This document shows, piece after piece, positions 10,386-57,676 of a stretch of DNA of 64,000 nt. The notes beneath the pieces were generated by a model. It had not been told where the DNA came from and ran no database searches. It worked only from the letters and a program-made list of their open reading frames with translations. The position numbers were made by a program, and so were the translations under genes. Position 1 is the first letter of the stretch. Each line of letters begins with the position of its first letter. Source of the stretch: Nitrospirota bacterium (GTDB taxonomy: Bacteria; Nitrospirota; Nitrospiria; JACQCE01); assembly GCA_016201765.1 (NCBI GenBank), contig JACQCE010000062.1, positions 11,419-75,418 on the forward strand, in the 5' to 3' direction.

Positions 10386-10414
10386 CCCCATCCCTCACAC
10401 GAAAGGAGCCGCGT

Positions 10415-11283: not shown

Positions 11284-11288
11284 AGTAA

Positions 11289-11376: not shown

Positions 11377-11430
11377 TGTCATTTATTATAGTTGGCCTTC
11401 ACAAATTCAGGTTTGAAATTGAGGTAAACC

Positions 11431-11823
11431 ATGCCACGAGCTAAAGGCGGGCCGAAAACCCGTGTGCGCAGACGAAAACGGCTGAAACTGGCCAAAGGGT
11501 ATTACGGCGCCAAGAGCAAACTGTTTCGAACTGCCACCGAGCAGGTCGATAAAGGACGCCAATACGCCTATCGCGACCGGCGGGCCCGCAAACGGACGTT
11601 CCGGAGCCTCTGGATTGCCCGGATCAACGCCGCCCTCGCGCCGGAAGGGCTCTCCTACAGCCGGTTCATCGCCGGGCTGAAAACGGCGGGCATTGGTTTG
11701 GATCGCAAGAGCCTGGCGCAACTGGCCGCCGACGATCCCTCCGCCTTCTCGGCGATCGTCAGCCGCGTGAAGACGGTCCTGCCGGCCGGCGGGAAGTCCG
11801 CGCCGCTGGCCGCAGCCGGTTAA
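11431..11823 (+). CDS. rplT: 50S ribosomal protein L20
   Basis: [20 protein letters not shown]...[24 protein letters not shown] is the L20 signature. About 12-aa C-terminal extension relative to the E. coli protein. Confidence 0.9.
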
Positions 11824-23400: not shown

Positions 23401-23661
23401 GGGGCCATTCCAGCGGCTTGAGGGGGCGAAGCCTGCGGGGACGCACGACAGGCGGTTCGCTCCCATGCCCGCATTAGTTTGTCAGCTTCTTCCGCGTTTT
23501 TTTCACTACACAAGAGGGCCAACGCACGTCTCAGGGCTGTGTCAAGGAGCTCTGATGGCTGGCGGCTTCTTTTCTCCTCAGCCTTCCCGTGGCGATCCGG
23601 GCGCCGACGGGGCCCAGCCCGAACCACACGCACGTACATTCCACCAACGCTGGAGGTTCCC

Positions 23662-27627: not shown

Positions 27628-27972
27628 GTCGAGTATCAACAGTTGAAAAACGGGCCGTGGTGTTGTGTTGCGGCGCCCGGCTCGCAGCAGGATCATTTCC
27701 CCTCGTTTTATCTGCACTACTTCCAGCAACGGAAGGTTCAGTGTGGCCCGGAGCCGAAAGGATGCGCTCCGAAGGCTTGGCATTTTCTTTTTCCGCCCGT
27801 CTGTTGTTGAAGAATCACGCCTTTACAGGCTGGGATTCTTCGACATGAGTGGAGAAAGGCTCCTTGGTATCCGCTCGCTGACCCCGCCTTCAGAGGGCGG
27901 GGATTGCGCTCGCTATGCATGTTCGCCGCACATGCCCTCCGGGCGTGTGCACACCAACGGAGGTGCCGAGCC

Positions 27973-31869: not shown

Positions 31870-31989
31870 AAGGTAGCTAGGTCGTCAGGTAGCCAGGTGG
31901 CTAGACAAACAAATCAGTATTTCCCCGAGTGACCTAGCCACCTTTGCAGTTCCCAGCTCTACCTAGCCACCTAGTTACCCAGCCACCTT
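31870..31989. repeat. palindromic array of degenerate 8-bp units (GGTGGCTAGGT family), copy 3
   Basis: aaggtagctaggtcgtcaggtagccaggtggctag ... acctagccacctttgcagttcccagctctacctagccacctagttacccagccacctt. Shares its 5' end (AGAGAAGGTrGCT) with copy 2. Confidence 0.55.
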
Positions 31990-32000
31990 TTTTCCCTCTA

Positions 32001-32029
32001 TTGACTTCCTCCAAAACGACCGATAGGAT
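32001..32029 (+). promoter_or_regulatory. sigma70-like promoter TTGACT-N17-TAGGAT
   Basis: Directly after repeat copy 3. The -10 overlaps the first ATG of the ubiC-like ORF, so either the promoter or that start codon is misassigned. Confidence 0.3.
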
Positions 32030-32627
32030 GCCGATTGTGACGGTTCCATCGTCGAGCGTGCCGCCGATTGACCGCCTGCTCTCCTCGGTCAAATGGCTGA
32101 ATCCTGAGGAGTTTCTCTCCGGCGGAGGAGGTTTGCCCGCCCCCCTGTGGCGCGCCCTCCTCCTGACCGACGGATCAACGACCCTGTTTCTTCAGGCACT
32201 CTGCCGGACAACCATCACGCTGGAGATGATTGATCAACGGACGGCCCCCCTGCCGCCGCCGCTGACCGGCTTGCTGAAGATCGAACCGAACCGGCCGGTG
32301 CTGCAACGGCATGTCTGGCTGACCGACGGCCGCCGCCGGCTGGCCCTCGGCTATGCCCTCATTTCGCTCGAACAGCTCAGTCCCACGCTTCGGGAGCAAC
32401 TGGTCGCGGGCACGCGCCCCATCGGCCTGCTGGCCGATGAAGCGGGACGGTCGCTGCGCGATCAGTTGCAGGTGGGCAGTCTGACCGATGCCGGACTGGC
32501 CCGACAGTTCGGCGTCACGGCCGATACCTTCTGGTGCCGCCGCTATCGATTAAGAATTCCCGACGCCATGACGGCCGCCATCATCGAAATCTTCTCCCCC
32601 GTGTTGGATCACCTGCCGTCTCCGTGA
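32028..32627 (+). CDS. chorismate lyase (UbiC)-like protein, start uncertain
   Basis: LWRALLLTDGSTTLFLQAL resembles the UbiC DWLLLEDSMTKRFEQ region. Lies directly upstream of ubiA. Confidence 0.45.
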   Translation: MPIVTVPSSSVPPIDRLLSSVKWLNPEEFLSGGGGLPAPLWRALLLTDGSTTLFLQALCRTTITLEMIDQRTAPLPPPLTGLLKIEPNRPVLQRHVWLTDGRRRLALGYALISLEQLSPTLREQLVAGTRPIGLLADEAGRSLRDQLQVGSLTDAGLARQFGVTADTFWCRRYRLRIPDAMTAAIIEIFSPVLDHLPSP

Positions 32628-32655
32628 GCGGCCGTCAGATCAGTCCTTTCTCCGC

Positions 32656-33540
32656 ATGAGCCGTGTGGCCGACAAGCTGATCGCCTTGGCCGAGCTGATC
32701 CGCCTGGAAAAACCCTACGGCGCGCTGCTGCTGCTCTGGCCCTCTCTCTGGGCCTTGATGATCGCCGGCGAAGGGCGTCCGCCGGTGTGGGTGGTCGCGC
32801 TCTTCTGTCTGGGCGCCTGGGTGATGCGCAGCGCCGGCTGCGCGATGAACGATCTGGCCGACCGCCGGATCGACGCGCAGGTGGCGCGCACGAAGAGCCG
32901 GCCGCTGCCGTCGGGCCGCCTGACGCCGGCCGACGCCGTCGGCGTGATCGCCGTGCTGCTCCTCGCGGCCGCCTGGATCGTCTGGCAACTGCCGCCGCTC
33001 ACCCGCTGGCTGAGCCTGCCCGGCGTCCTGCTGGCCGCGGGCTATCCGTTGACCAAGCGTTTTTTCCCCGCCCCCCAATTCGTCATGGGCGTCGCCTTCG
33101 GGTGGGGCGTGCCGATGGCCTGGTCGGCCGTGCGCGGAAACCTCGACCCGACCGCCTGGCTGCTTTTCTTCGCCACGGTCTGCTGGGCCGCCGCCTATGA
33201 CACGATCTATGCGCTCATGGATGTGGCCGACGACAGCCGGCTGGGCGTCCACTCGACCGCCCGCCTCTTCGGCCGGCAGAGCTGGCTGGCCGTCATTGGA
33301 TTGGAGCTCGCCATGCTGGTGCTGCTCGTCTGGGCCGGCCGCCGGGCCGATCTGCATCTGCTCTATTTTTCGTCGCTGGGGGCCGCCGGCCTCCTCTTCC
33401 TTTACCAGCTGTCGCATGTTAAAATGCAGCCCGATCGTGAGACGGCGTTTCGTCTCTTTCGCGCGCACGTCGGTGTGGGATTGGTGATTCTACTCGGTAT
33501 TGAGTTGGACTACGCCCTGATTCCAATGATCATCCGTTAA
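32656..33540 (+). CDS. ubiA: 4-hydroxybenzoate polyprenyltransferase
   Basis: UbiA prenyltransferase motifs NDLADRRIDAQVARTKSRPLPSG and YDTIYALMD. 9 TM helices. Confidence 0.85.
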   Translation: MSRVADKLIALAELIRLEKPYGALLLLWPSLWALMIAGEGRPPVWVVALFCLGAWVMRSAGCAMNDLADRRIDAQVARTKSRPLPSGRLTPADAVGVIAVLLLAAAWIVWQLPPLTRWLSLPGVLLAAGYPLTKRFFPAPQFVMGVAFGWGVPMAWSAVRGNLDPTAWLLFFATVCWAAAYDTIYALMDVADDSRLGVHSTARLFGRQSWLAVIGLELAMLVLLVWAGRRADLHLLYFSSLGAAGLLFLYQLSHVKMQPDRETAFRLFRAHVGVGLVILLGIELDYALIPMIIR

Positions 33541-33554
33541 CCCGTTGCCCTCCG

Positions 33555-34388
33555 TTGCCACACCACCGCCTCGTTCGATCGCTTGTGCTGCTCTCGGCCG
33601 TCATCCTGCCCTCCCTGTTCGGCGGTCCGGCGGGCTGTCAGCGACCCGCCGCCGCCCCGGGCATGGTCTGGATCCCCGGAGGCCCCTTCACCATGGGCAC
33701 CGATGAGACGGACGCGGAAGGGCGGGCACTGGAGTTCGGCCTGACCAAGCCGTGGTTTGAAGACGAGCATCCCACGCATACGGTCAACCTGCCCGGCTTT
33801 TATCTGGACCGTAATGAAGTGACCAACGCCGATTTTGCCGCCTATGTGGCTGCCACCGGCGCAAGGGTCCCGGGAACCTGGAAAGCCGCCACCTATCCCG
33901 GCGGCGAGTCGAACATGCCGGTGGCCAGCGTGAACTGGTACCAGGCGAATGACTATTGCGCCTGGGCGAAGAAACGGCTGCCGACCGAGGCGGAATGGGA
34001 GAAGGCGGCCCGGGGCACCGACGGACGACTCTATCCCTGGGGCAACGACTTCTCGCTCGACAAGGCGAATCTCATGTCCGGCTCGGTGCAGCCGGTGGGC
34101 CTGTTTGCGCGCGAGCCGAGCCCCTACGGCGTGAACGATCTGGTCGGCAACGTCTGGGAATGGACGGCGGACTGGTATCTGCCCTATCCGGGATCGACCG
34201 CCGCCTCAAAAGATTTCGGCCAGAAATTCAAAGTGGTGCGCGGCAAGTCCTGGACCAAGGGCTTCGGCCATCAGGAGAAGGCGGAGGTGAGCCAGATCAT
34301 CGCCCATGAAGCGCGCGGCGGCTTTCGGCTCTATTTCGATCCGGTTTTCGGATTCAACGACCTGGGGGTCAGATGCGCAAAATCTTAA
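33555..34388 (+). CDS. periplasmic FGE/SUMF1-fold (formylglycine-generating-enzyme family) protein 1, lacks the catalytic Cys pair
   Basis: FGE-sulfatase domain motifs (WIPGG.FTMG, HTVNLPGFYLDRNEVTN, RLPTEAEWEKAARG, NVWEWTADWY, GFRCA). Signal peptide. No CxxxxC near the C-terminus. Confidence 0.7.
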   Translation: MPHHRLVRSLVLLSAVILPSLFGGPAGCQRPAAAPGMVWIPGGPFTMGTDETDAEGRALEFGLTKPWFEDEHPTHTVNLPGFYLDRNEVTNADFAAYVAATGARVPGTWKAATYPGGESNMPVASVNWYQANDYCAWAKKRLPTEAEWEKAARGTDGRLYPWGNDFSLDKANLMSGSVQPVGLFAREPSPYGVNDLVGNVWEWTADWYLPYPGSTAASKDFGQKFKVVRGKSWTKGFGHQEKAEVSQIIAHEARGGFRLYFDPVFGFNDLGVRCAKS

Positions 34389-35470
34389 TCATGGCCGCAA
34401 GCATGCTTTACCTCGCGGCTGCGGCCAACGGGCAAACAACGGTGGCTCGGGGCGTGGGGGCATCGGAGGACCCTTCTTCGCTTGTGCCACACGGGCCCCC
34501 ACATTTAATGAAGCCCGCCTGCCGCCAGTGCCACATTGATGGGAAGAAACCCGTGGCCGATTACTCAAGCAATCCCGAATGCCGGGAATGCCATCTGCCT
34601 GACGGCAGAGCCTCCGGGCCGCCGACCGCCCCGGCCATTGCGGCGCCGGTTGCCGCCGGCGCGAATCCGCCGCATGCCGCGACCTCGGTCCAGTCTGGGG
34701 AGACGATCATCACGCAGAAAATGGTCTCCATCCCGGCCGGGCCGTTCTGGATGGGCAACAACGGCCGGGGCGCCGACGGTCCCGGCGACGAGGATGAACA
34801 GCCCCTGCATCAGGTCACGGTTGAGGCCTATTCAATGGACGTCTATGAAACCACCAATGCGATGTTCAAAGAGTTCGTCGACGCCGTCAACTATGCGACA
34901 CCCAAACTGTGGAAGAACGGCGTCTATCCAAGCGGCAAGGCCAACCATCCGGTCACGTACGTGTCATGGTTTGATGCGGAGGAATTCTGCCGGTGGGCCG
35001 GCAAGCGGCTGCCGACCGAGGCGGAATGGGAAAAGGCCGCCCGCAGCCCGGACAAACGGATCTTCCCCTGGGGGAATCAATTCGATCCGATGAAGGCCAA
35101 CACGCCGCAATACTGGATGGCCATCCATCAGAATGACACGGCTGATACCATGCCTGTCGGCAGTTTTGAGGCCGGGAAAAGCCCCTATGGCCTCTACGAC
35201 ATGTCGGGCAACGTCTATGAATGGGTCAATGATTGGTACACCCAGTATCCGGGCAACCGGTTTCCCAACGATCATTACGGCGCGAAGAACAAGATCGTCC
35301 GCGGGGGGTCGTGGTACGACTGCCTCTCCTACGGCTGCGGCTTGAGTTCCCCCACCTATAACCGCAGCCGGTTCAACCCAGACATCCGCAACAAGGGATT
35401 CGGATTCCGCTGTGCAAAATCCGCCCACGGACGCGCCAAATCCACAACCGGACAGCGAGGCGAGCCATGA
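34373..35470 (+). CDS. diheme cytochrome c fused to FGE/SUMF1-fold domain, retains C-x4-C (DCLSYGC)
   Basis: Two CXXCH motifs (CRQCH, CRECH) in the first 80 aa after a signal peptide. C-terminal FGE fold with the Cys pair positioned as in the catalytic Cys pair of human FGE (C-x4-C). Confidence 0.7.
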   Translation: MRKILIMAASMLYLAAAANGQTTVARGVGASEDPSSLVPHGPPHLMKPACRQCHIDGKKPVADYSSNPECRECHLPDGRASGPPTAPAIAAPVAAGANPPHAATSVQSGETIITQKMVSIPAGPFWMGNNGRGADGPGDEDEQPLHQVTVEAYSMDVYETTNAMFKEFVDAVNYATPKLWKNGVYPSGKANHPVTYVSWFDAEEFCRWAGKRLPTEAEWEKAARSPDKRIFPWGNQFDPMKANTPQYWMAIHQNDTADTMPVGSFEAGKSPYGLYDMSGNVYEWVNDWYTQYPGNRFPNDHYGAKNKIVRGGSWYDCLSYGCGLSSPTYNRSRFNPDIRNKGFGFRCAKSAHGRAKSTTGQRGEP

Positions 35471-36294
35471 AACAATGGTCATTGTTCACGTGGGCCGCGC
35501 TCGCGGCGCTGCTCGTGCTATCGGCTGCCTGCCAGAAACCGCCCCACGGCATGGTGCTCATTCCGGCCGGGGAGTTCATCATGGGCACGGACGAAGTGGA
35601 TACGGACAAGATCGGGCTCGGATACGGCATCGTCAAGCCCTGGTTCGACGACGAACATCCGAAGCGGCGGTTCTCCCTTCCCGCCTATTACATCGACCAA
35701 TACGAGATTACCAACGAGCAATACCAGGCGTTTCTGGTGGAGAGCAATCGCCGTCCGCCCCGGTACTGGCCCAACAATCAGTATCCGGCCGGCAAGGATC
35801 GCCATCCGGTGACGTGGATCACCTGGGAGGATGCCGACGCCTATTGCCGGAGGGCCGGCAAACTGTTGCCGACAGAGGCGCAGTGGGAGAAAGCGGCCCG
35901 GGGGCCCAACGGCCTGATCTATCCCTGGGGCAATGACTTTGATCCGGCCAAGGCGAACGTCGGCGGCTCAGCCGGCGGCACCAAACCGATCGGCAGCATC
36001 GAAGCGGGCAAGAGTCCGTACGGCGTGTACGACATGACCGGCAACGTCTGGGAATGGACGGCCGATTGGTATGAGCCCTACCCCGGCGCGCAATTCACCG
36101 CCGGGTTCTACGAGGATAAACTGGGGCACCGGTACAAGGTGATCCGTGGCCTCTCCTGGTCGCCGATCGGCCACTATGACGCCGAAGACGCCAAGGCGGT
36201 CATGCGCCACTACGCACGGGCGTCCTACCGGTTGTTTTACTATCCGAACGACGGGCTGGAGGATCTGGGGTTCCGATGCGTCAAACCGGCATAA
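35467..36294 (+). CDS. periplasmic FGE/SUMF1-fold lipoprotein 3, lacks the Cys pair
   Basis: Lipoprotein-like signal (LVLSAAC). FGE-fold motifs. ATGA overlap with the upstream gene. Its last about 100 nt are duplicated at 38017..38119. Confidence 0.7.
   Translation: MKQWSLFTWAALAALLVLSAACQKPPHGMVLIPAGEFIMGTDEVDTDKIGLGYGIVKPWFDDEHPKRRFSLPAYYIDQYEITNEQYQAFLVESNRRPPRYWPNNQYPAGKDRHPVTWITWEDADAYCRRAGKLLPTEAQWEKAARGPNGLIYPWGNDFDPAKANVGGSAGGTKPIGSIEAGKSPYGVYDMTGNVWEWTADWYEPYPGAQFTAGFYEDKLGHRYKVIRGLSWSPIGHYDAEDAKAVMRHYARASYRLFYYPNDGLEDLGFRCVKPA
36188..36291 (+). repeat. 103-bp direct repeat, copy 1 (3' end of FGE-fold gene 3); copy 2 at 38017..38119
   Basis: About 97% identity between the copies. 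They bracket the low-GC segment 36292..38016. Confidence 0.85.
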
Positions 36295-36316
36295 TAGTCC
36301 CAAGAACCTCGGTTCC

Positions 36317-36345: not shown

Positions 36346-36418
36346 TTCATCATTCTAAGTCTTTGTGGCCTTATTATCTCGGCCGGTGTTGATCCATGTA
36401 CACGTCAAGGAGGCTGGT

Positions 36419-38014
36419 ATGGAGTCCTCCCTTCAAGCTGCAAAGCCAAACTTCCTGATTGTCATTGGCGTGCTCACCGCTATCGTATGCGTTGCAACAT
36501 CGGCAACCTGTGCAACAGGCATCATTTCTGACGTTCCAGAAGCCAAAAATCTTCTCATCCAAGCAAGCCATATCGCCGCAAAAATTAATGACAAATGGCA
36601 TATTAATGAACAACATGCCCTGGAACGAATTGCCCTCGCCCAGATCAATATTCAGGCACTTGAAGATGCTTTCAACACACTGTCGCTCATCAAAGAGGGA
36701 GACAAAGATCAGATATTGATCGCGATTGCTAAAGCTCAAACCCAAATAGGTGACGTCAAGGCCGCTCAACAAACAGCCAAAATGTTTAGATCAGGAATCA
36801 ACCAAAGCCATGCTCTGGCGGCAATCGCCGCCGCACAAGCACAATCTGCAAACGTCGATGCTGCACTAAAAACCGCATCCCTCATTGATCCTAAGACATC
36901 AGGGTATGAAATAGCCTACCAACAAATTTCTCGAGCCCAAATAGCAGACGGCAATCTAGACAGCGCACTAGTGACGGCCTCCCCCATTATGGACATCACG
37001 CCCTATGCTTTATGGGGCGCCATGAACGACCTCGTCTCAATTGGGAATCTGGATAGTGCCCGTCAATTAGCATCAAAAATCCCTGACCCATATCAGAAAG
37101 GATATGCCCTTGAAGGGTTGGTCGTGGCGCAGCTTCAAACAGGAGACATTCAGGGAGCGTTACACACTGCCGCCTCCATTGAAGCCGGCCATCCTCAAGC
37201 AAGCGCGCTCAAAGCCATTGCCGATAAACAGTTGAAAACTGGAGACAGCTCGGCTGCCCGACACACCCTCCAAGACGCCATTCAAGCGACAACACGCATT
37301 ACTAATAGCGGTGATATTGCCAAATCGGACATCTTGTGGCGTATTGCCGCCACTCAAGCGGCCGCTGGCGATCTCAATGGGGCAAAAGTGACCGCCGCTG
37401 CCATTAAAACCGAAGCCCATAAAGCCTTCGCCTTTCACGATATTGCCAGAGCACAGATTGCTCGCGGCGATATCGAGGGCGCACGAAAAACGATCAAGCA
37501 GATTGCAGAAGAACCGATCAGCCAATCCAATACTCGCTCCGTCGCTGAGCTAGACATTGCCGGTGCTCAGGTCAAGGCTGGCCATCTTTCCGACGCAAAG
37601 GCAACTGTCGACAGCCTAAACAAAGAGTATCGACAGACCGGGCTGGGTACAATTGCCAGGGTGCAGGCTGAGACAGGGGATTTCACTGGAGCCATGGAAA
37701 CTGTTGCCGCGATCAAAGACACCGACGTCAAATCTTCTACACTGCATGAAATCGCCCAAGCACAAACAAATGCAGGGGATTTTAAAGGTGCCGTGCAAAC
37801 AGTCGCCTTGATTCCAGATCAAGAACCGCAATGGCAGAAATTCGACACCCTGCGTGACATTTCTCGCGCTAGAGTAAAGACAACAAACGCAAAAGAGGTT
37901 CTTGCTTGGGCGAATACGATTACAAATCCGCTGGAGCATTCGGCCGCTTTACTCGGCATCGCCGAGGGCTTAATAAAAGAAAACCACTCACTGCCCCATA
38001 TCACTGCCCCATAA
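36419..38014 (+). CDS. secreted/lipoprotein-like protein with about 12 tandem 33-aa alpha-helical (HEAT / PBS-lyase-like) repeats, encoded on a low-GC cassette
   Basis: Repeat consensus IAxAQxxxGDxxxAxxTAxxI. N-terminal hydrophobic signal FLIVIGVLTAIVCVATSATC. Strong RBS AAGGAGG. GC clearly lower than the flanks. Confidence 0.7.
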   Translation: MESSLQAAKPNFLIVIGVLTAIVCVATSATCATGIISDVPEAKNLLIQASHIAAKINDKWHINEQHALERIALAQINIQALEDAFNTLSLIKEGDKDQILIAIAKAQTQIGDVKAAQQTAKMFRSGINQSHALAAIAAAQAQSANVDAALKTASLIDPKTSGYEIAYQQISRAQIADGNLDSALVTASPIMDITPYALWGAMNDLVSIGNLDSARQLASKIPDPYQKGYALEGLVVAQLQTGDIQGALHTAASIEAGHPQASALKAIADKQLKTGDSSAARHTLQDAIQATTRITNSGDIAKSDILWRIAATQAAAGDLNGAKVTAAAIKTEAHKAFAFHDIARAQIARGDIEGARKTIKQIAEEPISQSNTRSVAELDIAGAQVKAGHLSDAKATVDSLNKEYRQTGLGTIARVQAETGDFTGAMETVAAIKDTDVKSSTLHEIAQAQTNAGDFKGAVQTVALIPDQEPQWQKFDTLRDISRARVKTTNAKEVLAWANTITNPLEHSAALLGIAEGLIKENHSLPHITAP

Positions 38015-38016
38015 AT

Positions 38017-38119
38017 AACGCCAAGGCGGTCATGCGCCACTACGCACGGGCATCCTACCGGTTGTTTTACTATCCGAACGACGGGCTGGAGGATCTGGGG
38101 TTCCGGTGCGTCAAACCGG
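38017..38119 (+). pseudogene. orphan duplicated 3' end of FGE-fold gene 3 (direct repeat copy 2)
   Basis: Encodes ...AKAVMRHYARASYRLFYYPNDGLEDLGFRCVKPV with no upstream gene body. Confidence 0.7.
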
Positions 38120-38125
38120 TATAGC

Positions 38126-38250
38126 AGTGACGAGTGTCGAGTGACAAGTGGCAAAAATGAAAATGCCGAATTTCGAATAAAGATCGCCTAACAATACTTC
38201 TACTCGACACTTGTCACTCGTCACTTATCACTATCACTCATCACTCGCCA
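38126..38250. repeat. palindromic array of GTGACGAGTG-type units
   Basis: gtgacgagtgtcgagtgacaagtggc ... AT-rich centre ... ctcgacacttgtcactcgtcacttatcactatcactcatcactcgccac. Confidence 0.55.
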
Positions 38251-38520: not shown

Positions 38521-39300
38521 CTATTCCTTCGTCGGGGGCTCGATCGTCTTGTCGGAGCGAAGCGTGCTCAGATAGGCGGTGATGGCCAGCGCCTCGTCAT
38601 CGGAGAGGCCGAAGTTTGGCATTTTCGTATCGCGCTTGATCGACTGCGGCGCCTTGATCCACCGGTAGACCCACCAGGGATTCAACCGGATGCCCGACCG
38701 GCTCAGATCGGGCCCCACATGGCCGCCCTTCTCATCGATGGCATGGCAGGAGGAGCAGACAAATTTTGACCGATAGAGATGCGCTCCCTTCTCCTCAAGC
38801 GCCTTCAACTGATCCGGTTTGTAGTCGGCCAGGCTGATCTTGGCGGTGACCTGGGCGGCATGCCGTTCCGTGCTCAACGGCTTGCTGAAATCGACCTTGC
38901 CCGCCTCATTCTTCTGCAGCGTGCGGACATAGGCCACGATCGACCAGCGCTCCTCGTCCGACAGCGTGTATTTGAACGTGGGCATGATCGCCGGCACCCA
39001 GTTGTCCTCGGGCTTGGTGTCCTTCTCTTCCACGATATCCCGGCTGAGCGTGGCGTAGATTTCCTCGTTCGTCTGGGGGCCGATGTACTCTTCCCTCGAG
39101 TCGGTCAAATCGCGGGGATGCGGGTCCAGGAATTTGGCGTTGAAGCCGTCACCCTTCCCCTTCGGCCCGTGGCAATGAATGCAGTAGTACTGGAAGAGCT
39201 CCCGCCCCTTCGTCACATGCGGATCCTGAAAAAAGCTGCATCCGCCAACCCCCACCATAATCGCCAGCACGGCGACCGCCCATCCGATCAGCTGTTTCAT
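38521..39300 (-). CDS. diheme cytochrome c
   Basis: Two CXXCH motifs (CIHCH, CSSCH). Signal peptide. Confidence 0.8.
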   Translation of the reverse strand: MKQLIGWAVAVLAIMVGVGGCSFFQDPHVTKGRELFQYYCIHCHGPKGKGDGFNAKFLDPHPRDLTDSREEYIGPQTNEEIYATLSRDIVEEKDTKPEDNWVPAIMPTFKYTLSDEERWSIVAYVRTLQKNEAGKVDFSKPLSTERHAAQVTAKISLADYKPDQLKALEEKGAHLYRSKFVCSSCHAIDEKGGHVGPDLSRSGIRLNPWWVYRWIKAPQSIKRDTKMPNFGLSDDEALAITAYLSTLRSDKTIEPPTKE

Positions 39301-39593
39301 GGCGTTGATCCCTTCTTCTTCGATCCGGTCTCTTTTGAACCGGTTTTTTCCAGGTCCGCCACGGCGGCCTCGGCCAGACCGATGATCCGTTCCATCTGAC
39401 GGATCCGCTCCTCCGGTGTCACGGCGGGCCCCAGTATCACCGGCTCGGGGCCCTGTTCCGCTTCGGATTCTTCGACCCCCTCAATGACGACCTTCTTGTG
39501 CACCGGCAACGCCAGCCAGCCACCGAGGATCACCACCACGCAGACGGTGATAAAGACGGTCAGAAACAATCCCTGATCTTTCGGCGGCTGCAC
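39297..39593 (-). CDS. small membrane protein, function unknown
   Basis: 98 aa. One TM helix. Stop/start overlap with its neighbours in the operon. Confidence 0.35.
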   Translation of the reverse strand: MQPPKDQGLFLTVFITVCVVVILGGWLALPVHKKVVIEGVEESEAEQGPEPVILGPAVTPEERIRQMERIIGLAEAAVADLEKTGSKETGSKKKGSTP

Positions 39594-39596
39594 GCG

Positions 39597-40676
39597 TCAC
39601 TCCCGAAACATGATGGCCCGGACCGTGAGGATGACGATCGACGTCATCACCACCACCCAGGAAGTCAGGGCGATCGGCCGTTTGAAAATGTTCCGCTCTG
39701 GGCTCCGGTCGATGAACGGCAACGCCGCCAGGAGCAGCAGGAAGAGCGTAGGGAGCAGAATAGCTCCAAGGAACTCGCCAAACTCGCCGGAGAAGAGGAA
39801 CGCCAGCGCCGGATCCCTGAGCAATTGGAACAGGAACAGGAAATACCATTCCGGTTCCGGGTTCAGTCCGGAGGCGACCGGACTGGCCTCCTCCAGCATT
39901 TCGTGCGGCCATCGAACGGCCAGCGTGCAGACGATGACGAACACCAGCCCCATGACCACAATATCCTTCCAGACCTGCGTCGGGAAGAAGTATTCCATCT
40001 TCTCCTTGAGCTCTTTCGTGGTGCCTCGAAACGGGCCCGCCGGACCGGCTTTTCGAAACAGAAAAATATGCAGACCGGCCACCGCCATCAACGCGGCGGG
40101 CAGGATCATGATGTGGATCACAAAAAAGCGGCTCAGCGTCTGGGCCCCAGGCACGGGACCGCCCCGAAGGAAGCGCCCCAGGAAATCACCGAGGATCGGC
40201 GCCTTGTCGACGATCTCAATGCCGATCACCGTGGCCCAGTAGGACCGCTGGTCCCACGGCAGCAGATAGCCGGTAAATCCGAAGCCGATGACGATCAGGA
40301 ACAACAGGAGGCCGGCCAGCCAGACCATCTCGCGCGGTTTCTTGTAGGCGCCCCAGAGATAGACCTGGGAGATGTGCATGATCAGCACCGCCACCATGGC
40401 GGACGATCCCCACAGGTGATAGCTGAGGATGAACCAGCCGAAGTCGACCTTTTCGATGATGTATTTGGTGCTTTCCCAGGCGTGATCGGCGGTGGGGGCG
40501 TAATAGAACATCAACAGCAGGCCGGTGACCGCCTGCATGATGAAGATGAACAAGAGCGCCGACCCGAAGACGTAGGCGTAGCGGGCGCCGCCGGCCATCG
40601 GCTCGTTGAGCATCTTGGCCTGGAGGCCCTTCAGGTCGATCCGTTCGTCAATCCATCGATAGACAGCCTCAAACAT
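39597..40676 (-). CDS. cytochrome b (bc1/b6f complex cytochrome b subunit)
   Basis: Heme-ligand and Qo-site motifs (YYAPTADHAWESTKYI, LPWDQRSYWAT/PEW-like, HIMILP). 8 TM helices. Start at the internal ATG (MFEAVYRW), 2 nt after the Rieske stop. Confidence 0.8.
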   Translation of the reverse strand: MFEAVYRWIDERIDLKGLQAKMLNEPMAGGARYAYVFGSALLFIFIMQAVTGLLLMFYYAPTADHAWESTKYIIEKVDFGWFILSYHLWGSSAMVAVLIMHISQVYLWGAYKKPREMVWLAGLLLFLIVIGFGFTGYLLPWDQRSYWATVIGIEIVDKAPILGDFLGRFLRGGPVPGAQTLSRFFVIHIMILPAALMAVAGLHIFLFRKAGPAGPFRGTTKELKEKMEYFFPTQVWKDIVVMGLVFVIVCTLAVRWPHEMLEEASPVASGLNPEPEWYFLFLFQLLRDPALAFLFSGEFGEFLGAILLPTLFLLLLAALPFIDRSPERNIFKRPIALTSWVVVMTSIVILTVRAIMFRE

Positions 40677-40678
40677 AA

Positions 40679-41617
40679 CTAGGCGATCCGGACCTGTTCG
40701 GCCTTGCCGGCCTTGAACTCCATGTCGATGATTTCCACCTCGCCGCTGCCGGAAATTTTCAACGGGAGCACGTCGAGGCGGCGCGGCGCGGGACCATCCA
40801 ACACCGTGCCGCTTGGATCGAAGACGCTCAAATGACAGGGACAGACGAAAACCTGGCCAAACCGCTTGTGTTTCCGCCAGCGAAAGGCGCAGCCCAGATG
40901 CGTGCACTTGCCGGAGAGCACGGCGATGTCCGCGTCCTTCTTGTTGACCCAGATCAGGGTGCCCTTGTCATCACGGAATTCATGATCGCCGTTCGGATAG
41001 ATTTTGTCCCTCAATTCCGGCGTCAATTTGATCACCCAGTGGGATTTCTCGTAGTGCCGGGTGATGTATCCTTCGAGAACCGTTTTCTGGAATTTAAAGA
41101 GCTTGGGCACCCCGGGCTCCTGCCCCATGGCGTTGATCGCGCCCAGTTTGATCCAGAGGTTGGTGAACGGTTGATACAGCGGATAGATCAGATAGCGCAC
41201 CACCGGGAACACCAGGGGCAGCGCCAACATGGCGCCGATCACGTTTGTAAACCGGGTGAAAAACTGCCGGCGGGACAGGTCCTTCTCGAGCACGGGCAGC
41301 GGCACCAGCACCCCGCCGGGAGTCACCTGATCGAGATTGCGCTCCAGATGGGGAATCTCCACATCGTGGATCGTGACGAAATCGTCGCGCCGAAACGGCG
41401 CGGACGCCGCCGCAAGGGCGCCGGAGGCGCACGTCAACCGAACCTCCCGCTCGGTGCAGCCGGCGATGAGACCGTCGATCGCCACGACCGATTCCCGGCC
41501 GTCGGCCTTGATCACCAGATGGCTGACGGACTTGGCAATCGGATCGGCGATGACGTACGAGACTTCGCCGACCTCCCGATCGGTGCAGATGACTTTGGCT
41601 GTGATCCTGGGCTGCAT
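40679..41617 (-). CDS. Rieske [2Fe-2S] protein with about 110-aa N-terminal extension
   Basis: CTHLGC...CPCH Rieske boxes. Preceded by a TM helix and an extra N-terminal domain. Confidence 0.8.
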   Translation of the reverse strand: MQPRITAKVICTDREVGEVSYVIADPIAKSVSHLVIKADGRESVVAIDGLIAGCTEREVRLTCASGALAAASAPFRRDDFVTIHDVEIPHLERNLDQVTPGGVLVPLPVLEKDLSRRQFFTRFTNVIGAMLALPLVFPVVRYLIYPLYQPFTNLWIKLGAINAMGQEPGVPKLFKFQKTVLEGYITRHYEKSHWVIKLTPELRDKIYPNGDHEFRDDKGTLIWVNKKDADIAVLSGKCTHLGCAFRWRKHKRFGQVFVCPCHLSVFDPSGTVLDGPAPRRLDVLPLKISGSGEVEIIDMEFKAGKAEQVRIA

Positions 41618-41632
41618 CCCGTCACCGCACCA

Positions 41633-42493
41633 TTACTTGACAGAATAGCCCGGCGGGAAGACCGGCTGGGGGGTATCCGCGGCCGTATTTTTGAGCGTCA
41701 GCAGGAACGTGACAAGGGCGTGCAGTTCTTCTTCGCTCATGACTTCGGCAAATTTCTCCGGCATCTTGTCCTTCCCCTCCGCCTGTTTTTCAAATCCCTT
41801 GGCATGCCAGGCTTTGGGGTGGAAGACCTTGTCCTTGAGCTGCGCCTCGGTGGCCAGGTTGCCGATGTTCTCAAGAATGGGCCCGCGCTTTTTGCTCTTC
41901 TTGCCGCCGATCTGGTGGCAGTTGTAGCATTCGTGATCCTGGAACACCAGTTTGCCCCGCTCGACCGGATCCATGCCGGAGAGATTGGCGGCGGGCGCCG
42001 AGGCGGGCTTCGCCGGGGCGGAGGCCTCAACCGATCCGACCTCCAAATGGGCGCCGGCGGCCTGCAACTGGTTCAGCTTGGCCGCCAGCTCATCCGCCTT
42101 GGCTGAGAGCTCTTTCGTCCGTTGCATCAAGGAGGCGGTTTGTTCATCGCTTAGACGATATTTGACGGTTTTCCTCGCGATGCCGGCGACTTCAATCTTC
42201 GAATCAAATTGGGGCAGCAGGGTGCCGGCGGTCACCAGAATCGCCGAACAAATCAGGTAAAACACGATAATGCCGAGCCCGGCCTTCCAGCCCATGAGCG
42301 GCGTGGGCGATGGCGCGTCAAGCGCGACAAAAATGATCAATCCCAGCACCGCATAACTGACATACATCCATTGAAAAATCCTGGGAAAGCCCAACGATCC
42401 GCTGACAAACCACAACGCCACGGCGGCGACCACCGCGGCCACGAGCTTCCAGCGGATAATCTGCATCCAGCTTTTGGGTGCGTGTGCGCTCAT
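41633..42493 (-). CDS. membrane-anchored monoheme cytochrome c
   Basis: C-terminal CYNCH. N-terminal TM segments. ATGA overlap with the upstream bd-like gene. Confidence 0.7.
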   Translation of the reverse strand: MSAHAPKSWMQIIRWKLVAAVVAAVALWFVSGSLGFPRIFQWMYVSYAVLGLIIFVALDAPSPTPLMGWKAGLGIIVFYLICSAILVTAGTLLPQFDSKIEVAGIARKTVKYRLSDEQTASLMQRTKELSAKADELAAKLNQLQAAGAHLEVGSVEASAPAKPASAPAANLSGMDPVERGKLVFQDHECYNCHQIGGKKSKKRGPILENIGNLATEAQLKDKVFHPKAWHAKGFEKQAEGKDKMPEKFAEVMSEEELHALVTFLLTLKNTAADTPQPVFPPGYSVK

Positions 42494-44406
42494 GATTGCG
42501 CCCCCTTCTTCGCCGTATGCCCGGCTCCGAGCGCCAGCCAGATCGCCAGGCTGACCACCGCGAAGAAAATGACCGCCAAGATCGTAATCACCACGGCTGA
42601 ATAGCCCAACGTCGGCGTAAAGTTGTTCGGGCTCAAATCCGGGAGAACATCGTAGATGTGAAAATATTTTCTCAGCGAGGAACGGATCACACCCATCAAT
42701 CCCATCGTCCAGATTGCGCCGAAGGCCAGAAAGATCAACGCAAACTGCGAGGAAAAGTCGATTTTGCCCCATCGGATCGTGCCGCGTTTGATCGCCCGTG
42801 TGTACAGGATGAAGCTCACCAGAATCATCAACACCATCAGCCCCACGGCGGTCAGTTTGGCCGGCATCAACGCCAGAAAATCCCAGTTCGACGGCAGCGA
42901 CAGAAACGCTTCATTCTCGTCGGTCAGCGAGGAGACGGCCCCCACAAACGCGTGCGGCGTCATCCAGGTGGCGTTCCCGAGCAGCAGGATCAGGAAGGCG
43001 CATTTGATCACCAGTTCACGACGGCGCAGGCCGAACCGCTCGAGCGCCAGCAGCAACTGCGCCAACAACCGGACGGGCAGCACCAACAGACTGCGGCCCG
43101 GCGACGACGACGAACCGCGCGTCATCGCATTGGACGAACTGGCAATGAGCACCGCCAGGGGGAAGAGGAGGAGCAGCAACGACAAGCCCAGCCCCTCGTG
43201 GGCATGCAAGGAGAAGACGTAGAAAATCGATCCGAGGAGCGCGCCCTGCCCGACCAGAAACGCGATCCCTGCGCCCCACTGCCCGTTGTACATCTGCCCC
43301 AGCCCCGGGACGATAGCCGACAACACACCCGCGACAAGTTTCTGGGACACCGCAGTGGAATAATCCGGGATCTCAATCCGTTTCAGACTCATCCAGATGT
43401 AATAGGCGCTTGCCAGAAAAATCAGGCCGATCATCCCCCCTTGCATGATGAAAAACATCGAGAGTTGGTCGGCCATCATGTACGGACCGATCGAAGCGTC
43501 ATAATCATAGAATTCGGCGGCGTACACATACCCCATCAACGGCAACACCAGCAACGCGCTGATCCCGATGAAGTTGCCGACGAACCCCATCCAGTCGTAG
43601 TAGGCGCGTTCTTCATCCGTCTTGGAGAACATGTACATGTACGCGGCAATCAATCCGGTGATAAACCCGCCGAATGTGACATTGCCGGCCAGACGGTGGA
43701 AGTTCATCGGCATCCAGCTGAAGTTGTTCATCTTGTCCCAGAGCGTCGCCGTCGTCTCGATAAAGTCCCGAAGGTTCATGGTCATCCCCTCGGGGGCCTT
43801 GACCGGCGTATTCATAAACGACGTGGGACCATCGATCGCGAACAACGTCACGATCCCGATCACATTGAGCAGCACCCCGATGGCCAGGTGGCGGCCCTTC
43901 TTGTCGCCCTGCAGTCCATCCCATGTGTACCAGTAGAAATACAGGACCAACGTCTCGAGGATAAACAACAGGGGATAGCCGATGCCCATGATCAGAAAGA
44001 AGTGATTGAACAACCAGCCGGTGAAATCGGGATAAAGGGTCACCAGCGCCAGCAGGAAGAAGCCCCCCGTCAGGGCGGTCATGCTGTAGAGGATGGCCGT
44101 GATCTTCGTGACTTCCTTGGCGAGCCGGTCGTATTTCGGATCATGGCTCCGCACCCCCAGCCATTCCGAGATCACCACGAAAATCGGCGCCCCAAGAACA
44201 AACGCGGCAAACAGAATATGGAGCTGGGCCAGCGCCCAGACCGCCACCCGATTGCCCACATACGGGAAATGCGCGGGCTTGAGGATTTCAATCGTTTGGG
44301 CCAGCACCGACGGGGCGACCAGCGCCACCAAGATGGCGCAGGCAGTCAGCACAACCATTGCTCGCCCCCAGCCCGAATGGCGGGATGTCCGCATTCCAGC
44401 TCTCAT
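42490..44406 (-). CDS. cytochrome bd-like oxidase subunit I (CydA-like) membrane protein, no cydB partner
   Basis: 14 TM helices. N-terminal similarity to CydA (LHILFAAFVLG vs YHFLFVPLTLG; IGYPLLFILETLVLYFYWYTW vs [23 protein letters not shown]). Confidence 0.65.
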   Translation of the reverse strand: MRAGMRTSRHSGWGRAMVVLTACAILVALVAPSVLAQTIEILKPAHFPYVGNRVAVWALAQLHILFAAFVLGAPIFVVISEWLGVRSHDPKYDRLAKEVTKITAILYSMTALTGGFFLLALVTLYPDFTGWLFNHFFLIMGIGYPLLFILETLVLYFYWYTWDGLQGDKKGRHLAIGVLLNVIGIVTLFAIDGPTSFMNTPVKAPEGMTMNLRDFIETTATLWDKMNNFSWMPMNFHRLAGNVTFGGFITGLIAAYMYMFSKTDEERAYYDWMGFVGNFIGISALLVLPLMGYVYAAEFYDYDASIGPYMMADQLSMFFIMQGGMIGLIFLASAYYIWMSLKRIEIPDYSTAVSQKLVAGVLSAIVPGLGQMYNGQWGAGIAFLVGQGALLGSIFYVFSLHAHEGLGLSLLLLLFPLAVLIASSSNAMTRGSSSSPGRSLLVLPVRLLAQLLLALERFGLRRRELVIKCAFLILLLGNATWMTPHAFVGAVSSLTDENEAFLSLPSNWDFLALMPAKLTAVGLMVLMILVSFILYTRAIKRGTIRWGKIDFSSQFALIFLAFGAIWTMGLMGVIRSSLRKYFHIYDVLPDLSPNNFTPTLGYSAVVITILAVIFFAVVSLAIWLALGAGHTAKKGAQS

Positions 44407-44411
44407 GTCCG

Positions 44412-44930
44412 TCACTGTGCCGGCGGTGGGACGTACTCTTTGCTGTGATCGGCCGGTTGCCCTCCATGTGCGAAGGTATTCTCGTAGGCCATCACCTTCC
44501 AGCGTTGTTCCTCGGTCAATTTGGTCTTCCACGCCTTCATCTTGGTGTTCGGCACCCCTTCGGAAATTCTCCAGAACCAGAAGCTGTCGGAGAAGTGTTT
44601 CATGTTCTCACCCACGCGGAAATCGCGGGCCCCGCGCTTCTTGGGCTTGCCGTCCCGGCCGTGGCAGCTGGCGCAGTTGACGTCCACGTCGAGTTTGCCT
44701 TCAAAAATATCTTTGCCTTCCGCCACAATCTTGGGATCCATCCACCACCCGTCCGGCATGTGCTTGTCGGCATATTCGGCGGGCACCGGCGGGAAGACCA
44801 CCGGGTTTTCCCCGCCCCCCTCGCCGCACCCGAAGATGAATAATAAAGACATGACCGACAGCCCCGCCGCCACTCGACCCATCTGCACTCGCCCCATCCG
44901 ATCCGACTCCTTTCTGTGCCGTGTCACCAA
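44412..44930 (-). CDS. monoheme cytochrome c lipoprotein
   Basis: CASCH motif. Signal with lipobox-like LLFIFGC. Confidence 0.7.
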   Translation of the reverse strand: MVTRHRKESDRMGRVQMGRVAAGLSVMSLLFIFGCGEGGGENPVVFPPVPAEYADKHMPDGWWMDPKIVAEGKDIFEGKLDVDVNCASCHGRDGKPKKRGARDFRVGENMKHFSDSFWFWRISEGVPNTKMKAWKTKLTEEQRWKVMAYENTFAHGGQPADHSKEYVPPPAQ

Positions 44931-45001: not shown

Positions 45002-45538
45002 TCAGGCCCGGCGCTTTTTCAGCGACCGTCCCCCCTTCGCCCGGCCGGCGCGCGATCGGGCATACAACGCCACCGACACGCCGGCAAGCACGGCCAGCAC
45101 CGCACCGCCCCCCCACCAGAACTGATTCACGCTCTGCCCGCCGGGTTGAGCTGCCGGCGCGGCTGCGGCCCCGAAACTTACCTCCATCCGCCGTTCAGTT
45201 GACTTATCCTGTGGATTAAATTCGGCCGAGATCCGTTTGGTGTCATCGCCAGTGGAGACCTCAATCGGTTCGCCCAGATCGGTGTCATGAACATGGAGGG
45301 TCGATTCATAGTAGCCCTGCCGGTCGGTAAACGCCGTGGCGCCCTCTCCCAAGCGCGTTGCGCTGATGATCACACGGGCGTCGGCGACCGGCTTGCCCTG
45401 GGCGTCCCTGACAGTGCCGTAGATGGTCAACCGATGATCGACCTCGTGCATCGCCAGCGCCACTGAGCCATCCCATGCCCCACCCCCGAGCATCGCTCCC
45501 AACAGCAGCAGCACCCGCCAGATCCGCCGGCGGTTCAT
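45002..45538 (-). CDS. secreted protein with carboxypeptidase-regulatory-like beta-sandwich domain and C-terminal TM anchor
   Basis: TIYGTVRDAQGKPVADARV is CarbopepD_reg-like. Signal peptide. C-terminal hydrophobic helix followed by basic residues. Confidence 0.45.
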   Translation of the reverse strand: MNRRRIWRVLLLLGAMLGGGAWDGSVALAMHEVDHRLTIYGTVRDAQGKPVADARVIISATRLGEGATAFTDRQGYYESTLHVHDTDLGEPIEVSTGDDTKRISAEFNPQDKSTERRMEVSFGAAAAPAAQPGGQSVNQFWWGGGAVLAVLAGVSVALYARSRAGRAKGGRSLKKRRA

Positions 45539-45727
45539 TCGGCCTCTTGCGCCGTTGTTTTTCCCCAGCACAGCGCACACACCATAGAACCGTCGATCAA
45601 CAGAGGCCGCATCCGATACCGATATAAAACCAAATCTTTCTGCCGAATAAGGCCACACTTATAGCATAGGGGGTCTGTAATGTCAACAAAAAATGGGCGT
45701 CGCCACAACCTCGAAACTCTCGTCAAA

Positions 45728-52712: not shown

Positions 52713-53162
52713 TTATTTCTCGCCGCCGAGGCTGCGCTCGTAGAGGATCGCCTTCCAACCCTCTTCTTCCGTGATCACCGATCCCACGACCGGAATCATG
52801 GCCGTGCCCGCGCTGCCGTTCTTGAGCACCCACATCATCTCGCCGGCTGTTTTGGCCTTGTCAAACGCCGGATTGCTGAAATTGCGCGGCGACGGATCAA
52901 GACCGGTGGCCGCCGGGCCGTCTCCCTTGCCAGCCATGCCGTGACAGGTAAAGCAGGTGCCCTTGCCCTCAAAAATGGCCTTGCCTTCAGCCAGCGCCGC
53001 AGCATTGCCCTGAAAGGGATTCTTCGCCTTCTTGGCATCCGCGAGCTGATCCGCAGGTACGCGAGAGGCCAACGGATCCTTTTCCGCCGAGATGGCGACA
53101 GCCGCGCCCATGACGGCAATGACGACCAACACTGCGCTTGCTTTGATCACGTGCTTGACCAT
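52713..53162 (-). CDS. monoheme cytochrome c
   Basis: CFTCH motif. Signal peptide. 150 aa from the internal ATG. Confidence 0.7.
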   Translation of the reverse strand: MVKHVIKASAVLVVIAVMGAAVAISAEKDPLASRVPADQLADAKKAKNPFQGNAAALAEGKAIFEGKGTCFTCHGMAGKGDGPAATGLDPSPRNFSNPAFDKAKTAGEMMWVLKNGSAGTAMIPVVGSVITEEEGWKAILYERSLGGEK

Positions 53163-53489
53163 GGTTCTGTACCCTCCACTGTGAGTGATAGTCTTGCTTG
53201 TTGCGTTCCCTTGCTTGCCCCTGCTTGGAGACTGCGCCGACTCTTTCGACGCCATGTTTGTCAGGCTGAGCGCGTCCTCCCCCACTGCTGCGACCCGCTC
53301 ATCCCTCCCTTCTGATCCGTGGGTTGGTGCGGGTTGCCCCCGCCGCGCACCGCCTGCTTCGACCCTACGTATCAGACGCTGATGCCGCCGCATTTATTCA
53401 GCCCGCCAGCGCCGTTCCAATCAAAGGGAATATCAAATCTGTTGCAAACCGCGGCATAATAACGGATTGTCACCATGATGTCAAGCCGA

Positions 53490-56633: not shown

Positions 56634-57676
56634 TTGAGCATGACCATCGCATCGCGCATGCTGCCGCCGGTTTCGCGCATGACGGTCGGCTCCACGCTGC
56701 AGTGCATCATGCAATTGGCACACCGGGGATCCTCCCGGCGCTCGAATTTTTCCCAATCCGTCTGGGCCATCAATTCCTCATAGCTGTTGTAGTGGCGGTC
56801 GGTGATCAGATAACAGGGCCCCTTCCACCCCTTGGGGTTGACGGTGGGATTGCCCCACGGCGTGCAGTCAAAGTGCCGTTCCCCGCGCAGGAACTCCAGA
56901 TACAACGGGGTATTCATGAAACGAAACCGCTTGCTCCATCCCGACAACCGGCGGAATTTGTCGTAAATGCCCTGGCGGTCCAGAAAAATATCATCATGGA
57001 TGGCCTGATAGGCGTAGCCCGGCGCGATCAACATGCCGTCGACACCGGCCGCGGTCAGTTCCTTGCACAGCCCCTCGATCTCGGCCATGTCGGTCTCTTT
57101 GTAAACGGTGGTGTTGGTGATCACCCGGAACCCCTGCGCCTTGGCCGTCTTGATCGCCGTCAGATCGATCTGATAGAGCCCCTTCCGTCCACGGGTCACG
57201 TCGTGCGTCTGTTCGAGACCGTCCATCGACACATTGATGGTGAAATAGGGGCTCTTGGGGAACTTCGGCAGAAACTTTTCCAACCCGATGGCGTTCGTGC
57301 ACAGATAGAGGTGCCGTTTGCGATCGACGATGCCATTCACCAGCCCGACGATATCGGGGTAGATCAGCGGTTCGCCGCCGCAGACCGACACGATCGGGGA
57401 ATCGCAGCTGTCAACCGCGCCCAGACATTCCTCCAGCGTCATTTTTTCCCGGATCGTCTCCTTGTACTCCCGGATGCGGCCGCAGCCGTCACACGCCAGA
57501 TTGCACGCGTGCAGCGGTTCGAGCATCAGCACCAGGGGGAAGCGCTTCCGCCCCTTGAGCCGGTTTTTAACCAGATGTTTGGTGATCGACCACGTCAACT
57601 GAATCGGAAACCGCATGTGCCACGCTTTCTGCCCGAACCGTGCCCGTCGGGCGCTGCTGTTGATGATGAAGGTCAC
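56618..57676 (-). CDS. hpnH: hopanoid-associated radical SAM protein HpnH
   Basis: CNLACDGC radical-SAM cluster motif. Conserved HpnH C-terminus. Confidence 0.8.
   Translation of the reverse strand: MTFIINSSARRARFGQKAWHMRFPIQLTWSITKHLVKNRLKGRKRFPLVLMLEPLHACNLACDGCGRIREYKETIREKMTLEECLGAVDSCDSPIVSVCGGEPLIYPDIVGLVNGIVDRKRHLYLCTNAIGLEKFLPKFPKSPYFTINVSMDGLEQTHDVTRGRKGLYQIDLTAIKTAKAQGFRVITNTTVYKETDMAEIEGLCKELTAAGVDGMLIAPGYAYQAIHDDIFLDRQGIYDKFRRLSGWSKRFRFMNTPLYLEFLRGERHFDCTPWGNPTVNPKGWKGPCYLITDRHYNSYEELMAQTDWEKFERREDPRCANCMMHCSVEPTVMRETGGSMRDAMVMLKWNLT

Follow-up and report, generated by a model that had tools for sequence, protein, structure and literature searches.

Genes for a complex III (CIII_1) share a locus in Nitrospira with two CydA-like genes, bd-like_1 and bd-like_2 (N. 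defluvii NIDE0896-NIDE0901; N. moscoviensis NZ_CP011801, ~699-711 kb). In N. moscoviensis the CIII_1 region, which lies beside the two bd-like oxidases and alt_nxrC_1, is highly transcribed, and a complex III-IV supercomplex has been proposed for it. CydA homologs with 14 helices were classified as OR-N1 and OR-N2; these proteins lack a quinol site and probably have another electron donor (Murali et al. 2021), which the literature on OR-N enzymes takes to be, probably, cytochrome c. NIDE0896 and NIDE0901 putatively form a CydAA' terminal oxidase, NIDE0901 being of the OR-N2 type (Mueller et al. 2025, supplement, PMC12342949). The latter protein (bd-like_2) has also been proposed, on a copper-binding site argument, as a novel heme-copper-like terminal oxidase. 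Here we describe a cluster of complex III, cytochrome c and CydA-like genes from a metagenome-assembled genome (MAG) of a Nitrospirota bacterium (GCA_016201765.1, contig JACQCE010000062.1, positions 11,419 to 75,418); the whole stretch analysed, 64,000 nucleotides (nt) long, is referred to as the window. The kind of system is already known, because the Nitrospira locus was reportedly described in 2010, by Lucker et al. in PNAS, and the OR-N classification of its CydA-like proteins dates from 2021. The cluster in the window is probably this Nitrospirota complex III_1/OR-N module, with OR-N1 as a cytochrome c-dependent oxidoreductase working with the bc complex, and with the OR-N2 module lost from the operon.

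Synteny with the Nitrospira complex III_1 locus

A scan of GTDB species representatives recovered 80 loci, all from Nitrospirota, the N. moscoviensis chromosome included. These loci share the gene order CarboxypepD_reg-like protein, cytochrome c, CydA-like protein, cytochrome c, Rieske protein of ~310 amino acids (aa) and cytochrome b (tblastn, blastp). A first, sequence-only reading of the window had pointed to a resemblance with putative novel oxidase loci of Nitrospira; the relationship turns out to be closer than that, with a syntenic ortholog for gene after gene in 80 Nitrospirota genomes. The Nitrospira CIII_1/bd-like_1/bd-like_2 locus has the same gene order as the window and likewise a diheme cytochrome c further downstream; its Rieske protein and cytochrome b are 50-70% identical to those of the window and its OR-N1 is 55% identical.

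The conservation extends to both ends of the cluster. Orthologs of the lipoprotein monoheme cytochrome c are found in all compared loci (48-84% identity), and the CarboxypepD_reg/Ig-like gene lies immediately upstream of it in nearly all related loci; this gene is possibly an eighth member of the cluster. The 98-aa protein encoded downstream of cytochrome b keeps its position in the closest relatives, at 42-64% identity.

Assignment of the CydA-like protein to OR-N1

The similarity to CydA noted from the sequence alone holds up in alignment. PF01654 matches the N-terminal half of the protein (E 7.4e-23; 81.2 bits, cutoff 26.2), covering only profile positions 8-239 of 418, and a phmmer search of PDB sequences returned Geobacillus CydA as the sole match (5doq_A; E 1.4e-11, over the first four helices). 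The AlphaFold model, made from a 70-sequence alignment, has a predicted local distance difference test (pLDDT) score of 82.9 and a predicted template modeling (pTM) score of 0.81, and its ten best Foldseek matches in the PDB are CydA chains without exception (E 7e-7 to 3e-5). NCBI entry MBI3621606.1, from a 'Nitrospirae bacterium' MAG, has the identical sequence (100%).

Two CydA paralogs occur in related loci. The first is 47-79% identical to the window protein, and the second, encoded downstream of cytochrome b, is 37-45% identical. A neighbor-joining (NJ) tree with the Nitrospira bd-like proteins, a placement that the sequence-only reading had proposed, groups the window protein with the first paralog (NIDE0896/bd-like_1), far from E. 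coli CydA. Bootstrap support is 75/100 for the OR-N1 clade, 81/100 for the window clade and 89/100 for the window protein with its L001 homolog, some replicates being affected by saturated distances to the E. coli outgroup. In the 80 syntenic loci, moreover, the gene occupies the same position as the first CydA paralog of the Nitrospira CIII_1 locus. The OR-N1 assignment rests on this orthology to NIDE0896, as judged from tree and gene position.

Column-wise conservation was computed over 81 OR-N1 and 51 OR-N2 sequences. Five histidines are at least 96% conserved in both paralogs (H63, H173, H237, H485 and H583), and four are confined to OR-N2 (H262, H383, H384 and H532 of N. moscoviensis bd-like_2), each at least 98% conserved in the 51 sequences. 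A check of the window protein for possible copper-binding histidines was negative: it has Y269, S503, L504 and Y581 in the four OR-N2-specific columns. Going by paralog-specific conservation, we assume that H262, H383, H384 and H532 underlie the copper-binding site argument for NIDE0901. In either case the window protein is, by sequence comparison, the NIDE0896 paralog and not a NIDE0901-type candidate heme-copper oxidase.

The heme ligands of CydA, which the sequence-only reading had proposed to check, have predicted counterparts in the window protein. An hhalign alignment of OR-N1 with E. coli CydA (local mode, 73% probability, low mact, the C-terminal part being of low confidence) places H63, H237 and M514 on His19, His186 and Met393, and E151 falls on Glu107 (hhalign; phmmer). 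These four positions are conserved in 96-100% of the OR-N1 and 90-100% of the OR-N2 sequences sampled; H63 is invariant, and E151 is kept in 96% of OR-N1 sequences. There is no Q-loop and no counterpart of Lys252/Glu257 (hhalign), and the place of the Q-loop, residues ~342-505, is occupied by about five transmembrane (TM) helices according to the alignment and the AlphaFold model. Alignment and model together show predicted ligand equivalents of the His/Met heme b558 site and a predicted active-site four-helix bundle (His19, Glu107), with no quinol site. With the OR-N family, subfamily OR-N1 (Murali, Gennis and Hemp 2021), the protein has in common the CydA four-helix bundle with His19, the missing quinol site, a large number of additional TM helices, a host from the Nitrospirota and an operon rich in cytochromes c.

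The sequence-only reading had counted 14 TM helices. In the AlphaFold model there appear to be about 15 long membrane helices and, at the N-terminus, a signal-like helix (15-16 in all), more than the 14 quoted for the OR-N1 subfamily. Unlike the 567-aa Nitrospira orthologs, OR-N1 of the window clade has ~58 extra residues, corresponding to two extra helices. In the model the insertion forms one more helical hairpin within the set of helices standing in for the Q-loop (helices 355-373 and 377-400; pLDDT ~87-94). It contains the motif PGLGQMYNGQW, which bears a weak DUF5683/TM2-like resemblance (DUF5683 E 1e-4, under the Pfam cutoff).

The database annotation of the protein, 'cytochrome ubiquinol oxidase subunit I', would fit a canonical quinol-oxidising cytochrome bd whose CydB gene is located elsewhere, and canonical CydAB(X) (E. 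coli, Geobacillus; PDB 6RKO, 5DOQ) does share the subunit I fold and the equivalents of His19, Glu107, His186 and Met393. We regard this explanation as extremely improbable. Unlike CydAB(X), the window system has no CydB in the 64 kb, and its OR-N1 has neither the Q-loop with Lys252/Glu257, replaced by TM helices, nor equivalents of Glu99 and Glu445; its electron donor is probably cytochrome c, versus quinol in CydAB(X). The count of ~15-16 helices versus 9, the grouping with OR-N1 far from E. coli CydA and the partial coverage of the Pfam profile likewise speak against a canonical enzyme. The canonical reading was therefore rejected, being effectively refuted by the alignment, and the original description of the locus as atypical for a quinol-oxidising cytochrome bd is supported.

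There is also a putative shorter OR-N1-like variant: CydA-like proteins of 502-505 aa (P0026-P0041) are 68-76% identical to the window protein over approximately its N-terminal half only. Some of the contigs concerned also carry OR-N2 (contig 149068, with P0029 and P0145).

Absence of OR-N2 from the operon

As the sequence-only reading had stated, the CydA-like gene has no CydB partner nearby: E. coli CydB gave a best E value of 0.18 by tblastn across the 64-kb window, and no PF02322-type gene is present among the 29 window open reading frames (ORFs) scanned with Pfam. A tblastn search for a second cydA homolog found none within the 64 kb. Unlike the Nitrospira locus, the window is thus without OR-N2 (NIDE0901/bd-like_2), and comparison with the related loci L005, L083 and L084 indicates that the two cytochromes c and the alt-NxrC-like gene that come after OR-N2 are missing as well.

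OR-N2 lies ~1.1-1.5 kb after cytochrome b in 54 of the 55 GTDB loci with enough downstream DNA, and the sole exception, L001, is the window's closest relative in that collection. The OR-N1-only operon is found in five contigs: the window, L001 (OR-N1 79% identical to that of the window), the JGI contigs L082 (more than 90%) and L086 (80%), and the Logan contig L089. Of the four contigs other than the window, two probably stem from its own population. One of these is L089, which, having a Rieske gene 100% identical to that of the window, is probably not an independent lineage. The genes for the small protein, the diheme cytochrome c and a YgaP-like protein follow one another in the window, L082, L086 and L089. 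Slightly more distant relatives (L002, L004 and L084) retain OR-N2. Two cytochromes c come after it in L083, L084 and L085, and where the contigs reach that far (L083 and L085) an alt-NxrC-like protein comes next. Judged from these gene orders, the simplest reading would be the loss of a four-gene module (OR-N2, two cytochromes c, alt-NxrC-like) within one subclade. It is conceivable, and we put it forward tentatively, that this subclade of uncultured Nitrospiria has dispensed with OR-N2 and respires through a compact bc-complex/cytochrome c/OR-N1-only module.

Another possibility, to which we give a minor share of the probability, is that the window OR-N1 belongs to a standard CydAA'-type OR-N oxidase, its OR-N2 partner being encoded elsewhere in the genome, and that the operon is a rearranged copy of the usual system. 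The literature hypothesis that OR-N1 and OR-N2 associate points in this direction, as do the presence of both paralogs in 54 of the 55 informative relatives and the incompleteness of the MAG, of which 64 kb were inspected. The five contigs without OR-N2 at the locus, L089 included, argue against it. Two further observations do so weakly: none of the 18 closest OR-N2 clusters (at least 69% identity to the nearest available OR-N2) has an accession near MBI3621606, and every closest OR-N2 gene whose context was checked lies in the canonical arrangement, beside an OR-N1 less similar to that of the window. When metagenomes were scanned with an OR-N2 query, the samples with window-like operons yielded no contig, a result that is uninformative on the presence of OR-N2.

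The OR-N2 region of two relatives is part of a larger assemblage. L083 (1-11649) and L085 (1161-9855) encode OR-N2, two cytochromes c, an alt-NxrC-like protein consisting of cytochrome c domains and EB_dh, a CarboxypepD_reg-like protein, a CydA-like protein of 663-677 aa and more cytochromes c. L083 alone, L085 ending earlier, continues with a second alt-NxrC-like gene and an ATP-synthase c-like gene, the whole making up one large supercluster. A CarboxypepD_reg-like gene stands ahead of each bd-like gene in both contigs.

Complex III subunits, cytochromes c and operon structure

All seven minus-strand ORFs between 38521 and 44930 that had been described from the sequence alone are present, with the expected domains (Pfam, NCBIfam; Table 1). 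Cytochrome b has the PEWY motif at position 275 and the histidine pairs H87/H101 and HIMILPAALMAVAGLH. In the Rieske protein, CTHLGC lies at 238 and CPCH at 259, preceded by a twin-arginine motif, RRQFF, at 116. In its AlphaFold model (pLDDT 86.5), a TM helix (114-144) leads into a periplasmic 2Fe-2S domain, and Foldseek matches the model to bc1 and b6f Rieske chains, with mycobacterial QcrA among the matches. Sequence motifs and models show that the b6-type cytochrome b and the Rieske protein would form a complete bc complex, predicted to oxidise quinol or, in reverse, to reduce quinone.

An additional N-terminal domain of the Rieske protein, put at about 110 residues by the sequence-only reading, is confirmed at that length. 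The window sequence itself has no Pfam match in these 110 residues, while 33 of 46 orthologs match PF05239 (best E 7.8e-5) and 3 match DUF2171; a small beta-barrel is modelled at residues 8-61 (pLDDT ~90). Among the matches listed (120, from Nitrospirota; orthologs P0265-P0383), all Rieske homologs are ~310 aa long and cover the whole query, and the RR motif is invariant. The extra domain is predicted, from these sequences and the model, to be a cytoplasmic PRC barrel conserved across Nitrospirota. It is not peculiar to the window, because the full length is kept in the listed homologs and the orthologs match PF05239. A literature search found no description of a PRC-barrel Rieske domain. The barrel precedes the twin-arginine motif, which is an unusual position for a Tat-type signal anchor.

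Four c-type cytochromes had been attributed to the operon; it has three cytochrome c proteins with four CxxCH motifs, that is, four hemes. The three proteins carry one, one and two such motifs, and no other cluster protein carries any. Lipoboxes and hydrophobic stretches mark them as predicted membrane-attached periplasmic cytochromes c, shown here to be encoded with the bc complex. The cytochrome c with the C-terminal heme motif has three hydrophobic stretches near its N-terminus that, judging by the sequence, are likely TM helices. The diheme cytochrome c has weak QcrC-like and CcoP-like NCBIfam matches. Pfam and NCBIfam scans of the 98-aa protein gave no significant match.

The view that most gene junctions overlap as ATGA needs revision. 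Two of the six do, where the start of the membrane-anchored cytochrome c overlaps the cydA-like stop and where the start of the diheme cytochrome c overlaps the stop upstream of it; the remaining junctions are gaps of 2-15 nt, which are still operon-like. The CydA-like protein is 638 aa long when read from the ATG 5 nt past the upstream stop, versus 622 aa in the NCBI call and 634 aa in the Logan call. A promoter and terminator scan yielded no signal defining the operon boundaries.

Table 1. Genes of the complex III_1/OR-N1 cluster in the window, in minus-strand order
Feature	Coordinates	Strand	Evidence
CarboxypepD_reg/Ig-like protein	45002..45658	-	Pfam PF13620, E 1.5e-8
Monoheme cytochrome c, lipoprotein	44412..44930	-	Lipobox IFGC; one CxxCH (CASCH); Pfam PF13442 and PF00034
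CydA-like protein, assigned to OR-N1 (NIDE0896/bd-like_1) type, 638 aa	42490..44406	-	PF01654, PDB match, NJ tree, AlphaFold, Foldseek
Clade-specific insertions in OR-N1, ~58 aa in total, within residues ~352-470	42997..43353	-	Alignment with Nitrospira OR-N1
Membrane-anchored monoheme cytochrome c, C-terminal CYNCH	41633..42493	-	Pfam PF00034, E 9e-12
Rieske iron-sulfur protein, 312 aa	40679..41617	-	CTHLGC/CPCH; Pfam and NCBIfam Rieske matches
Cytochrome b, b6 fused to subunit IV, 359 aa	39597..40676	-	PF00033 E 3e-49; PF00032; NCBIfam cytochrome b6 E 1.7e-65
98-aa protein, one N-terminal hydrophobic stretch (likely single TM helix)	39297..39593	-	Sequence
Diheme cytochrome c, lipoprotein	38521..39300	-	Lipobox VGGC; CIHCH and CSSCH; two PF00034/PF13442 domains

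Proposed electron transfer and function of OR-N1

The cytochromes c may relay electrons between the Rieske centre and OR-N1, and because of this presumed relay OR-N1 would be cytochrome c-dependent. OR-N1 itself would be a heme-b oxidoreductase of the membrane that most likely reduces O2, and it would form a supercomplex together with the bc complex. The OR-N2 module being gone from the operon, it would have to act either unaided, for instance in homodimeric form, or with a partner whose gene lies elsewhere. The weak NCBIfam match suggests a QcrC-like bridging role for the diheme cytochrome c. The actinobacterial bcc-aa3 supercomplex (QcrABC and CtaCDEF) offers a parallel, since there too the genes of a bc complex go together with one for a diheme cytochrome c; as in that supercomplex, the diheme protein may wire the Rieske centre directly to the oxidase. 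Unlike in bcc-aa3, the oxidase partner here belongs to the bd superfamily and not to the heme-copper enzymes, so the analogy is one of mechanism only.

In many OR-N2 homologs, 766-794 aa long, a cytochrome c domain is fused to the C-terminus (PF00034 with PF01654); among them are P0140, P0141, P0147, P0152 and P0163, a protein of Nitrospira sp. Kam-Ns4a and the L004 protein (10019-12457, with CALCH). This fusion supports cytochrome c as the family's donor of electrons.

Several points weigh against an OR-N1-based, cytochrome c-dependent oxidase. OR-N2, the paralog proposed as catalytic on account of its four extra conserved histidines, is absent from the window. Since the genome is a MAG of which 64 kb are visible, OR-N2, a cbb3 oxidase or CydAB could be encoded elsewhere in it. 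Two glutamates of CydA are not conserved in OR-N1: the Glu99 column holds G143/Y144 (phmmer, hhalign), and the Glu445 column falls on ~S576, an assignment that is tentative because this C-terminal part of the hhalign alignment is of low confidence. No OR-N enzyme has been purified or assayed, and papers of 2024 and 2025 state that confirmation by experiment is lacking. The direction of electron flow, forward or reverse, is not readable from sequence; as discussed for Nitrospira, the module might alternatively draw on electron donors in the periplasm and power a reversed flow across the bc complex.

The missing Glu99 and Glu445 equivalents and OR-N2-specific histidines would also suit a different function, in which OR-N1 serves the bc complex as an accessory heme-b membrane subunit, for example by letting electrons in or out or as a scaffold in reverse electron transport, and another enzyme reduces O2. 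The literature describes bd-like_1 as having a 'yet unknown role' and suggests an alternative-complex-III-like role for related bd-like proteins. We consider such a function unlikely, given the strict conservation of the equivalents of His19 and Glu107, which belong to the O2-reducing four-helix bundle, and given that Murali et al. take the di-heme site as the defining feature of the superfamily.

Other features of the window

Three tandem FGE-sulfatase-domain paralogs (33555-36294) lie just downstream of the respiratory operon, and L082 and L086 have them in synteny. A direct repeat of 111 nt, with copies at 36188-36298 and 38018-38128 (95% identical), is a duplication of the 3' end of an FGE-sulfatase gene and flanks a 1.83-kb segment of low GC content (0.515 versus ~0.62) that encodes a 549-aa TPR-like repeat protein (36365-38014, + strand). 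In L082 and L086 the YgaP-like gene is followed directly by the FGE-sulfatase gene without the low-GC segment, which for this reason looks recently inserted.

Genes for a chorismate lyase-like protein and a UbiA prenyltransferase (31944-33540) correspond to the first steps of quinone biosynthesis, and the FGE-sulfatase paralogs come next after them. In two large paralogous proteins of 787 and 751 aa (23479-25842 and 27904-30159), the C-terminal half contains an iron-containing alcohol dehydrogenase domain, and the N-terminal regions of 360-390 aa are without an assigned family; a gene for an MFS transporter lies between them. Another monoheme cytochrome c is encoded at 52713-53393, with synteny kept in L082 and L086, and adjoins hopanoid genes for squalene-hopene cyclase (54396-56756) and for a DUF3463-containing radical SAM protein (56618-57676).

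Implications

The features of this locus that are worth keeping are the OR-N1-only arrangement, which recurs in relatives, the clade-specific OR-N1 insertion and the predicted PRC-barrel domain of the Rieske protein, which may have a part in how the complex is assembled or regulated. Nitrospira and its relatives are key nitrifiers, and since 2010 their terminal oxidase has been inferred from genomes alone. The two paralogs thought to form this oxidase are separable in nature, as the present lineage retains the complex III genes, the cytochromes c and OR-N1 and has lost OR-N2 and its accessory genes from the operon. If OR-N2 is truly absent from the genomes, the lineage would be a natural test of which paralog reduces oxygen; the compact operon of seven or eight genes would also lend itself well to heterologous expression. 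OR-N1, possibly homodimeric and aided by the two-helix insertion, would then be self-sufficient as a cytochrome c-dependent O2 reductase, and OR-N1-only respiration, if real, would run counter to the CydAA' model, in which OR-N1 and OR-N2 together make up the Nitrospira terminal oxidase.

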